Below are positions 38,215 to 41,151 of a stretch of DNA of 64,000 nucleotides, one piece after another (position 1 is the first letter of the stretch; each line of letters opens with the position of its first letter). Source of the DNA: Escherichia coli (GTDB lineage Bacteria > Pseudomonadota > Gammaproteobacteria > Enterobacterales > Enterobacteriaceae); assembly GCF_003334305.1 (NCBI RefSeq), contig NZ_QOWS01000021.1. One strand, 5' to 3'. Made by a program: the position numbers and the translations under genes. Below the pieces are notes generated by a model. That model did not search any database. It saw nothing but the letters and a program-made list of their open reading frames with translations, and was not told the origin of the DNA.

Positions 38215-38708
38215 TGTTTCCCCCACAAACAGACTTCACGCTCAATCTCACGGCGAGTCATCAGTCCTTTCCATTGATTACCGCCAGCGTATGTCCAGCG
38301 CTGTAGCTGATCACATGCGCCTTTAATATCACCCTGGTTTATTTTGCGAAGAAGCGTCGATGTTCTGAAATTGCCAGCACCCACGTTGTAGACGAACGAG
38401 TAAAGAGCGCCGCGCGTTGTTTCCGGTATATCGACTTTGATGTACCGGTTAATTTGTCTGGCGACAGTTGCAAGGTCTTTATTCAGGAGGGCTTTGCACT
38501 CTGCTTCGGTATACGTTTTACCGGGAATGATGTCTTTTCCTGTATGCCCGTAACATACAGTCCATACACCAACTATGTCTTTGTAAGGATTATGTCTCAC
38601 ACCTTCCAGACCATCGTTACCACTTGGGCCAGTGATTAACACAGATGCTATAGCAATAGCCCCGCCACCAATAGCAGCAGCAACAGCTTTTCGTAATGAT
38701 GGAGGCAT
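38211..38708 (-). CDS. rrrD: SAR endolysin (phage-21-type lysozyme, RrrD-like), 165 aa
   Basis: N-terminal signal-anchor-release segment ([16 protein letters not shown]) plus T4-lysozyme-like domain; matches DLP12 RrrD as recalled. Confidence 0.85.
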
Positions 38709-38923
38709 TATTCACCTCTCGCAGCCTTGCGCTTATCTTCTTTAATCTTGAAATAAAGGTTTGTCAGGTACGTCAGCAGGCCAAATACCAGGCTACCCAG
38801 CACACCTATTGCTGCCCACTGTGAGGGCGTGACTTTATCGAGCAGCTGTAAAAACCAGTACCCGGCACTACCTGCTGAGGTGCCATAGGCGACACCCGTT
38901 GTTAACTTATCCATGGATTTCAT
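38708..38923 (-). CDS. essD: Pinholin S (phage-21-type, EssD-like), 71 aa
   Basis: Two TM segments and a charged C-terminus; immediately upstream of the SAR endolysin. Confidence 0.85.
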
Positions 38924-39032: not shown

Positions 39033-39068
39033 CTCAAAAAATGGAAAAACCCGCTCGACGGCGGGTTT
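39033..39068 (-). terminator. Intrinsic terminator hairpin upstream of S
   Basis: On the minus strand: aaacccgccgtcgagcgggttt followed by a T-tract; coordinates approximate. Confidence 0.5.
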
Positions 39069-39496
39069 AAGCTGTGTGACGAAGTAACCACTCTTAACAG
39101 CATAACCAATTTTTTACGTACGTAAACCACTAAATGATATTTGCGAGAATGCTACCGAGTATTGAAAACACCACTACAAATACATAAGCAAATCTCAACA
39201 AATAACCAACAAATAATTTCCAGCGTTATTTTTAGCCAATTTAAATTGAACCTTCAAATTATAGAGCACTTATAAATAACAGCCATTAATATAAATTGGC
39301 TAATAGATTTATTTTTATTCAGCCAAGAGCCATGAATAGGATTCGATAGAAAAAAGTTCAGATAAAAATAGAGATCTACTTCACAAATTAAACGAGAAAC
39401 CAAAACTTACATCTTGAAATAATCACATTGATTAGATGAATATTTATCGCGCAGTGACATCATTTTTTAATAATAGTTCAAAAAAAAGGGCTCACG

Positions 39497-40579
39497 ATGA
39501 AAAAATTAACAGTGGCAATTTCTGCTGTAGCTGCATCAGTACTGATGGCGATGTCTGCTCAGGCAGCTGAAATTTATAATAAAGACAGTAACAAGCTGGA
39601 TCTGTACGGGAAAGTTAATGCTAAGCACTACTTCTCCTCTAATGATGCAGATGATGGTGATACTACTTATGCCCGTCTTGGCTTCAAAGGTGAAACCCAA
39701 ATCAACGATCAACTGACTGGTTTCGGTCAGTGGGAATATGAATTCAAAGGCAACCGCGCTGAATCTCAAGGTTCCTCCAAAGATAAAACCCGTCTTGCCT
39801 TCGCTGGCCTGAAATTCGGTGACTACGGCTCCATCGATTATGGCCGTAACTACGGTGTAGCATACGATATTGGTGCATGGACCGACGTTCTGCCAGAATT
39901 CGGTGGCGATACCTGGACCCAAACAGATGTATTCATGACTGGTCGCACCACAGGTGTTGCAACTTATCGTAACAACGACTTCTTTGGTCTGGTTGATGGC
40001 CTGAACTTTGCAGCTCAGTATCAGGGCAAAAATGACCGAAATGAAGTAACTGAAGCTAATGGCGATGGTTTCGGTTTCTCAACTACTTATGAGTATGAAG
40101 GATTCGGCGTGGGTGCAACCTATGCTAAATCTGATCGCACTAATAATCAGGTTATCTACGGTAACAACGGTCTGAATGCTTCTGGTCAAAATGCTGAAGT
40201 ATGGGCAGCTGGTCTGAAATATGATGCGAACAACATCTATCTGGCCACCACCTATTCTGAAACCCAGAACATGACTGTTTTTGGTAATAACCATATTGCC
40301 AACAAAGCACAAAACTTCGAAGCTGTTGCACAATATCAGTTCGACTTCGGCCTGCGTCCATCCGTTGCTTACCTGCATTCTAAAGGAAAAGACTTGGGTG
40401 TTTGGGGTGATCAGGACCTGGTTGAATATGTTGATGTAGGTGCAACCTATTACTTCAACAAAAATATGTCCACTTTTGTTGACTACAAAATCAACCTGAT
40501 TGATAAGAGCGATTTCACGAAAGCATCTGGCGTTGCTACCGATGATATCGTTGCTGTAGGTATGGTTTACCAGTTCTAA
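39497..40579 (+). CDS. nmpC: Prophage-encoded general porin (NmpC/Lc, OmpC/OmpF family), 360 aa, apparently intact
   Basis: Signal peptide, porin beta-barrel sequence ending …VGMVYQF; located between Q and the lysis genes as in DLP12. Confidence 0.9.
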
Positions 40580-40594
40580 TTTGATTACTAAAAG

Positions 40595-40650
40595 ATATGT
40601 TGTGGGAGGCTTTGCCTCCCCAACATATAAGTGGCTCCCTCAAGCCACTT
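40595..40650. terminator. Two adjacent hairpins downstream of the porin gene (candidate bidirectional terminator / tR')
   Basis: 15-bp inverted repeat atatgttgtgggagg…cctccccaacatat followed by a second hairpin aagtggct…agccactt; coordinates approximate. Confidence 0.45.
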
Positions 40651-40715
40651 CCTTTAGAAGCACAACCTTGCTTCTAACTATACAAACCTTCTGTTATATA
40701 TTACCCTTTATTTTT

Positions 40716-40742
40716 GGGGGCGTTTCAACGCCCCATTTTTAA
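40716..40742 (+). terminator. Rho-independent terminator (plus strand)
   Basis: ggggcgtttcaacgcccc followed by TTTTT; coordinates approximate. Confidence 0.55.
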
Positions 40743-40767
40743 TAACTTTTAGTAAATAATTGGCGTA

Positions 40768-41151
40768 TTAATTAGAGTTATTAACAACGATATCCATCTC
40801 TAACCGGATATCTAATGCCATTAACATCCCTTCAATTATGCCCTCAGCCTTTTGTAACCTTTTCCCGATATAACCATCAGAGCAGCAATGCTTACCTGCC
40901 AGTGACATGAATGTCATACCGACTACATAATAATCTACTAATAAATCGTGCAAATCGCTGTTGTTCTTTTTCAGACGGGCCATGCACCCGCAAATGATCA
41001 TCGCGTCATCGTCACAACATTGCGGGCGAGATTTTACTTTTGAAGGAATTAATCCCTTAAAACCGGCGGCAATGGACGACCAGGTCACATCTTCATGATT
41101 ATTAGCCGCCCACGCTCCCCAACGCTCAAGAACCATCTGAATATCACGCAT
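40768..41151 (-). CDS. quuD: Late-gene antiterminator Q (QuuD-like), 127 aa
   Basis: Matches DLP12 QuuD as recalled ([21 protein letters not shown]…). Confidence 0.85.

Follow-up and report, generated by a model that had tools for sequence, protein, structure and literature searches.

A very probable Q-dependent late promoter and terminator on the lysis-gene side of a reverse-oriented porin gene in a DLP12/PA-2-type prophage of Escherichia coli

The closest described counterparts of the locus presented here are the late control regions of phage lambda, phage 21, the 933W group and the K-12 prophage DLP12. In lambda, a constitutive promoter (pR') is followed by a promoter-proximal pause and by a terminator (tR') in front of S, and the late genes are reached by Q-dependent read-through; the lambda promoter lies directly after Q, its 6S RNA is 194 nt long and its Q protein belongs to a family (PF03589) unrelated to the one considered below. 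The Q proteins of lambda, 82 and 21 load only at their own promoter-proximal site. In phage 21, whose Q protein (Q21; PDB 6P18-6P1C) belongs to PF06530, a literature-backed record describes a -35 element, two Q21 subsites in the spacer (direct 8-bp repeats bound by Q21), a -10 element, the start and a sigma-dependent pause element at +2 to +8; the terminator in this record extends to about +50. In 933W and VT1-Sakai, an annotated pR' promoter, a qut site and a first rho-independent terminator are found directly 3' of Q. The 933W cassette overlaps the 3' end of Q. After it come another 200 nt containing a second terminator (the mapped tR', from which StxS RNA originates), tRNA genes and stx. 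In the Sakai prophages Sp5 and Sp15, the 3' end at tR', mapped to this second terminator, is 258 nt downstream of the PR' start according to dRNA-seq and Term-seq (PMC7547250). In E. coli K-12, DLP12 (qsr') carries the genes quuD-nmpC-essD, with nmpC interrupted by IS5, and the lc region of phage PA-2 has the same gene order. Passages of PMC7918800 cite papers of the Hay lab for control of the DLP12 lysis cassette, upstream of essD, by a Q-like protein and by RpoE.

The 64-kb stretch of E. coli DNA analysed here (hereafter the window) contains the late-control segment of a DLP12/PA-2-type lambdoid prophage, with late genes read on the minus strand (Table 1). The first-pass annotation had described Q and S as separated by a reverse-oriented porin gene, and this layout was confirmed. 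The gene order is that of DLP12 and PA-2, and the module is 99% identical at the DNA level to quuD-nmpC-essD of K-12, but the porin gene of the window is intact. Thirty-six phage records share this Q-porin-S module with identities of 92-99%, among them ev243, PhiR70_1, mEp332, PA-2 and a 434B recombinant, and porin homologues in related phages are annotated as OmpD, NmpC or lc. The Q protein is 99% identical to K-12 QuuD, 79% identical to Q933W and 28% identical to Q21, and it matches the PDB entry for Q21 with an E-value of 7.6e-8. As the similarity to Q933W stops after the residues RLEMD, the final 7 codons of Q belong to the inserted module. Q and the porin gene are convergent, with a gap of 188 nt between them.

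Table 1. Features of the late-control segment, with positions and strands given for the window
Feature	Position	Strand	Basis
Q antiterminator gene, 127 aa, Q21/Q933W family	41151..40768	minus	Pfam PF06530, E 9.6e-54, full length
Canonical intrinsic terminator, GGGGCG-TTTCAA-CGCCCC then ATTTTT	40717..40742	plus	Terminator scan, fold
Two stem-loops in the porin 3' region	40629-40650, 40654-40677	plus	Folds, inverted repeat
15-bp hairpin with one bulged base and a 3-nt loop	40595..40628		Folds, variant alignment
Porin gene, OmpC family (nmpC/lc type), intact	39497..40579	plus	NCBIfam NF007841, 515 bits against a cutoff of 484
pR' -35 hexamer TTTACG	39126-39121	minus	Aligned with, and identical to, the annotated 933W pR' -35
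Dyad TTTACGTACGTAAA overlapping the pR' -35, about -34 to -21	39126..39113	minus	Aligned region; candidate Q-binding element
pR' -10 hexamer TATGCT, 16-nt spacer	39104-39099	minus	Aligned with the annotated 933W -10, TATCAT
Putative late start (A39092/G39091) and 24-nt conserved leader AGTGGTTACTTCGTCACACAGCTT	39069..39092	minus	Homology
Intrinsic terminator: stem AAACCCGC/GCGGGTTT (39068-39047), U-tract (39046-39036)	39068..39036	minus	Terminator scan and fold
S, S21-type holin gene, dual start (MKSM...), first late gene	38923..38708	minus	ORFs; annotation of homologous 434B, phage 21 and DLP12 regions
R	38708-38211	minus	ORFs; annotation of homologous 434B, phage 21 and DLP12 regions
Rz	38226-37753	minus	ORFs; annotation of homologous 434B, phage 21 and DLP12 regions
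Dyad variants across Q clades: TTTACGTACGTAAA, TTTACGATCGTAAA, ACGCGTACGC, GCGGTCCGC, TTCGTTACGAA, TGTTATAACA	-35/spacer region		

When the region upstream of S was used as the query in a sensitive DNA search, matches of two kinds were obtained. Thirty-six were full length, all of them from porin-carrying phages, while approximately 320 further records matched only positions 39127-39045. In 933W, VT1-Sakai and many Stx phages, this short match corresponds to the annotated pR' promoter, qut and first terminator, and the identity over the roughly 83 nt is 77-78%. The homologous parts are the -35, the spacer, the -10, the leader and the first hairpin, a likeness that extends to the corresponding regions of H-19B and Sp5. 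Two differences from 933W are apparent. First, the cassette in the window does not overlap Q; the distance from Q to the promoter, on the same strand, is 1.64 kb, and the reverse-oriented porin gene intervenes. Second, homology to 933W ends at position 39045, and S begins 112 nt past a single hairpin in the window, whereas the segment with the second terminator, tRNA genes and stx comes next in 933W. The core of the cassette occurs once in the 64 kb.

The PR' start mapped in Sakai falls on a936/g937 of 933W, 7 nt past the annotated -10, and these bases align with positions 39092/39091 of the window, which we infer to be the late start from this homology. Position 39092 corresponds to K-12 position 577,229, and terminated 3' ends would correspond to K-12 577,275-577,285. 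Downstream of the putative start, the alignment of the window with 933W contains an invariant block, TAAGAGTGGTTAC, and conservation of the core of this leader extends over about 65 distinct variants of the cassette. The leader also carries a -10-like sequence at +7 to +12 (TACTTC; TACATT in 933W), a weak match that does not have the usual final T. This sequence could possibly act as a sigma-dependent pause element.

Promoter prediction, which the first-pass annotation had proposed as a check, was of limited use: the promoter was found by homology to 933W, and the scans either missed or under-ranked it. A simple scan reported no minus-strand promoter in either intergenic region, thereby missing the homologous pR', although the PhiR40_1 version of this promoter was detected. 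By consensus alone, the window pR' matches at 8 of 12 positions and has a position weight matrix (PWM) score of 7.4; chance-level candidates scored above it, and the PWM scan was thus non-discriminating.

Comparison with phage 21 had also been suggested earlier. The S-side cassette shares its compact geometry with the phage 21 region, as well as the PF06530 Q family and the S21-type lysis genes downstream, but the promoter DNA of the two cannot be aligned. In addition, whereas Q21 binds two direct repeats in the spacer, no direct-repeat element of this kind was found in the window cassette, which instead has a dyad over the -35 and the spacer. A direct repeat, TTATTTGTTG, does occur twice at positions 39216-39196 and was considered as a Q21-like binding element. 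This idea was rejected: the repeat is separated from the homologous promoter by 70-90 nt, on its upstream side, and porin-less relatives do not have it.

The first-pass annotation had also noted a strong minus-strand terminator about 110 nt upstream of S. This terminator was recovered by both scan and fold: an 8-bp stem with a 6-nt loop and a folding energy of -12 kcal/mol is followed by UUCCAUUUUUU, and the end of the U-tract is separated from the start codon of S by the 112 nt mentioned above. Relative to the putative start, the hairpin occupies +25 to +46 and the U-tract ends at +57; an RNA initiated at pR' and terminated here would measure approximately 47-57 nt. As the terminator scan of the 112 nt before S found no second terminator-like site, this hairpin is the only tR' candidate on the S side. 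For the main hairpin type, 24 distinct variants were compared: pairing is retained in 92% of cells, versus 41-61% in slid controls, and three pairs are changed on both sides. Ten further cassette variants have an unrelated GC-rich stem and U-run in its place, a few bases downstream. That a hairpin and U-run are kept despite replacement of the sequence argues for a terminator function.

Based on these results, we consider it very likely that the late promoter and tR' are located between the porin gene and S, with the hairpin that precedes S as the tR' equivalent under the control of Q. Either this hairpin or the one on the Q side had been put forward as tR'. The S-side candidate lies within a cassette that is homologous to those of 933W and VT1-Sakai and that accompanies PF06530 Q genes, while the Q-side segment has no late-promoter relative and is restricted to porin-carrying records. 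The arrangement is of a known kind: it conforms to the usual Q-dependent late cassette of the Q21/Q933W family, in DNA that is nearly identical to K-12 DLP12.

Sequence homology, the layout of the elements and their co-occurrence with this Q family allow the following predictions for initiation, Q loading, termination and read-through. Minus-strand transcription would be initiated at about position 39092 by a sigma-70 promoter (TTTACG/TATGCT) and, when Q is absent, would end after approximately 50 nt at the hairpin and U-tract, such that the hairpin would serve as the equivalent of tR'. Q, encoded 1.6 kb upstream, would act in trans, loading onto RNA polymerase at pR', probably by means of the -35/spacer dyad and a promoter-proximal pause, and the modified polymerase would then pass the hairpin into S-R-Rz and the remaining late genes. 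The porin gene, having its own promoter and terminators, would stay outside of the late operon, and the stem-loops on its Q side, described below, would end the Q transcript in one direction and the porin transcript in the other. The earlier view of the porin gene as an insertion into the late operon is not upheld: it is reverse-oriented cargo between Q and pR', upstream of the late start.

Of the alternatives, the one that survives best is that the S-side hairpin is an RNA element of qut, involved in Q loading or pausing, and that termination without Q takes place elsewhere or through Rho. Both leader and hairpin show unusual sequence conservation. Furthermore, the mapped PR' 3' end of Sp5 and Sp15 is at +258 and a 74-nt RNA from the 3' part of this transcript accumulates (PMC7547250), which indicates that the homologous first hairpin in these prophages is passed at least sometimes. 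Nevertheless, we regard this explanation as improbable for three reasons. First, a second terminator is absent from the 112 nt before S, and the homology to 933W ends ahead of this interval. Second, the documented terminator of phage 21 is found at an equal distance from its start. Third, the ten variants with an unrelated stem favour a terminator over a sequence-specific element.

The remaining hairpin in question was described by the first-pass annotation as a 15-bp stem just downstream of Q. The hairpin exists, but it lies 139 nt from the stop codon of Q and only 15 nt past the stop codon of the porin gene. It is the porin-proximal member of four consecutive stem-loops in the Q-porin gap, a region that folds with a z-score of -7 relative to shuffled sequences. 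The outermost (stem at 40717-40734), with its plus-strand U-run, forms the outer terminator for porin transcription, with 26 nt left between it and the stop codon of Q; since its stem is followed on the minus strand by CAAAAATAAA, it is no terminator in the Q direction. The stem-loop next to the 15-bp hairpin is followed on the plus strand by UUCCUUU. Porin transcripts can therefore end both at this stem-loop and at the outermost terminator. The 15-bp hairpin is nearly as stable on the minus strand (-22.7 kcal/mol) as on the plus strand (-23.3 kcal/mol), and is one of only four 40-nt stretches at or below -22 kcal/mol in the 64-kb window. In one variant, an inserted G pairs with the bulged base. 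The terminator scan does not report this hairpin. It has a U-run on the minus strand only (CUUUUAG in the window, CUUUUUCG in K-12 and most variants), with the plus strand continuing as AAGUGGCU and having no U-tract; it would consequently oppose transcription leaving Q into the antisense strand of the porin gene. Most likely, this hairpin is not tR' but a terminator that insulates the convergently oriented Q and porin genes from each other, and we hold with moderate confidence that the four stem-loops together are the terminators of two convergent transcription units. PhiR40_1, which carries different cargo, likewise has a hairpin in the interval between Q and its cargo gene that resembles a terminator for transcription coming from Q.

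A different reading of this gap would place pR' directly downstream of Q, as in lambda, with the 15-bp hairpin as tR' and with Q-modified polymerase crossing the porin gene in antisense to reach S. Lambda bor is a precedent for a reverse-oriented gene within a late operon. The gap does contain a minus-strand promoter-like site (TTGAAA from position 40728 and TAATAT ending at 40698); with a PWM score of 11.2, it ranks in the top 5% when 240-nt chunks of the window are compared. An RNA begun at this site would comprise three stem-loops, with its 3' end at the hairpin that precedes CUUUU, and would loosely resemble lambda 6S RNA. However, the 19-nt spacer of the site is unfavourable, and its -35 is situated in the variable loop of another hairpin. 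In addition, the Q-porin segment had no match outside the 36 porin-carrying phage records in a collection that includes phage 21, lambda and 933W, and no homologue of it was found beside any other PF06530 Q gene. The segment is found only with the porin gene; it travels with the porin and not with Q. Among close relatives of the window Q, the next sequence is either other cargo or the conserved cassette itself, and further downstream the window has a complete homologue of the Q933W-cognate pR' cassette. On these grounds, a late promoter on the Q side is very improbable. [quoted passage not shown]

Least probable is that the lysis genes are driven mainly from upstream, with the S-side hairpin as a general attenuator: passages of PMC7918800 cite a sigma-E-dependent DLP12 start about 525 nt upstream of essD (approximately position 39448 of the window) and Rueggeberg 2015 for a regulatory region of -121 to +650, the primers given there for the regulatory fragment map to 39569 and about 38799 and so put +1 near 39448, a sigma-E-like motif (TGAACTA-16-TCACT) can be read near this position, and a second candidate (ATGGCT-17-TATAAT, with a perfect TATAAT at 39263-39258) has a PWM score of 10.5, but transcripts from either site would reach the hairpin without Q modification, and both sequences belong to the porin module and are missing in porin-less relatives. 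These starts may be extra host-controlled inputs in a cryptic prophage rather than the phage late promoter.

To compare cassettes across phages, viral contigs were scanned with the conserved core of the leader and the flanking sequences were compared. In addition to the approximately 65 distinct homologous cassette variants obtained, a PF06530 Q gene was identified upstream on the same strand in 93 loci (including the window and the reference loci). The gap between Q and the core is 20-69 nt in 25 of these 93 loci and 0.6-3 kb in the other 68. Loci without a detectable Q mostly have less than 2 kb of upstream sequence, with the exception of three that have 2.3-3.9 kb. The inserted DNA consists of about 25 different gene sets, almost always in reverse orientation, of which the porin gene is one. 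Other cargo includes lipoproteins and candidate anti-phage systems, with matches to PDC-S20, PDC-M53A and an OLD-like ATPase accompanied by a methyltransferase; most of the cargo consists of proteins of unknown function.

The Q proteins clustered into 19 clades at 88% identity. Within a single clade, Q may adjoin the cassette in one locus and be separated from it by several different cargos in others. The -35/spacer dyad, on the other hand, is constant within a Q clade and differs between clades (Table 1), whatever the distance to Q. Such a pattern would be expected if promoter and Q are functionally linked in trans, and it makes the dyad a candidate Q recognition element, although genetic linkage could yield the same pattern. 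We tentatively propose, as a possibility that at present falls short of being probable, that the interval between Q and pR' is a widespread, terminator-insulated exchange slot for lysogen-expressed and mostly reverse-oriented cargo outside of the late operon, and that the dyad may mark recognition by Q proteins of the 933W/DLP12 branch, in which case its symmetry would be unlike that of the direct repeats bound by Q21. A literature search for a cargo or defence hotspot between Q and pR' returned nothing specific.

With the late start placed on the S side in DLP12/PA-2-type phages, the porin gene would neither be part of the Q-dependent late transcript nor be transcribed in antisense by it. This bears on the regulation of nmpC/lc and of the DLP12 lysis cassette, as well as on the annotation of such prophages. 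The slot between Q and pR' may merit follow-up, as its cargo could guide searches for prophage accessory and defence genes, and the set of cassettes could supply natural Q-promoter pairs for studies of Q specificity.

A comparison with Rfam gave no credible family, the sole match being a sub-threshold one to Trp_leader (E-value: 0.52). In the 1986 record for PA-2, the sequence corresponding to window positions 39072-39092 is annotated as a CRP site; this sequence is the conserved leader, which is also present in porin-less phages.

Within the late promoter pR', the dyad that overlaps the -35 and spacer occupies the same position in the window and in the homologous cassette loci L003-L124 (see table), but its sequence is not constant. 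The variants found were TTTACGTACGTAAA, TTTACGATCGTAAA, ACGCGTACGC, GCGGTCCGC, TTCGTTACGAA and TGTTATAACA, and in the window and L003-L124 these vary with the Q clade (clusters of Q at 88% identity) regardless of the distance between Q and the promoter. The dyad may be the recognition element of this branch of Q proteins. If so, it differs from that of phage 21, as Q21 binds direct repeats while the candidate element here is a dyad.

In the 1986 PA-2 record (J02580.1), bp 1067-1087 are annotated as a CRP-binding site. This stretch corresponds to window positions 39072-39092 and matches the inferred late transcript exactly from +1 to +21. Its sequence is also conserved in phages that lack the porin gene. 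Downstream of this leader, two types of change were found in the tR' hairpin. In PA-2 (L011) and five viral contigs, a G-to-T substitution is present in the 3' arm (GAGCTGG) at the equivalent of window position 39052. This change weakens the tR' stem in PA-2, which is known to be a functional phage. In ten other cassette variants (L017, L023, L026, L028, L044, L052, L064, L093, L116 and L124), the promoter and leader are kept while the terminator stem is replaced by an unrelated CCTCGC...GCGGGG hairpin with a U-run, located about 10 nt further downstream.

The interval between PF06530-type Q genes and the late promoter is occupied by some 25 distinct gene sets, which are 0.6-3 kb in size and nearly always in reverse orientation. 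The cargo set comprised window positions 39127-40790 and L005, L006, L013, L015, L021, L023, L025, L027, L029, L037, L039, L044, L047, L051, L054, L058, L063, L071, L094, L097, L098, L102, L108, L113, L114 and L118. Some of these genes match PADLOC candidates, namely PDC-S20 (E-value: 4.5e-177), PDC-M53A and a HEC-04/OLD-like ATPase adjoining a Dcm-like methyltransferase. The remaining cargo belongs mostly to PHROG families of unknown function. The same clade of Q is found both without an insert and with several different inserts. At window positions 40768-40790, the similarity of Q to Q933W (from an Stx phage) and to other clades stops directly after the conserved ...LEMD motif, and the last seven codons and stop codon of the window Q derive from the porin module. 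The break falls at this same position in several relatives that carry cargo, suggesting that the 3' end of Q is a recurrent recombination junction.

Between the porin gene and pR' there is a perfect direct repeat that relatives lacking the porin do not have. This repeat may serve the porin promoter as a tandem regulator site. An inverted repeat in the same region encloses a perfect minus-strand TATAAT with a poor -35. A sigma-E-dependent start for the DLP12 lysis cassette was reported by Rueggeberg (2015), as cited in PMC7918800. When the PMC7918800 primers were mapped on the window, the published start was placed near 39448 (minus strand), where a TGAACTA-16-TCACT motif is found. This sigma-E-type start is upstream of the Q-type cassette and distinct from it.

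Repeats and promoter-like motifs near the late promoter
Feature	Window position	Strand	Sequence	Remark
Dyad at pR'	39113-39126	minus
Direct repeat	39196-39216		CAACAAATAA x2	11-nt spacing; minus strand, TTATTTGTTG x2
Inverted repeat	39232-39303		TTAGCCAATTTAAATT / AATATAAATTGGCTAA	16 nt; 94% complementary
-10-like hexamer	39263-39258	minus	TATAAT
Sigma-E-like motif	about 39448-39480	minus	TGAACTA-16-TCACT
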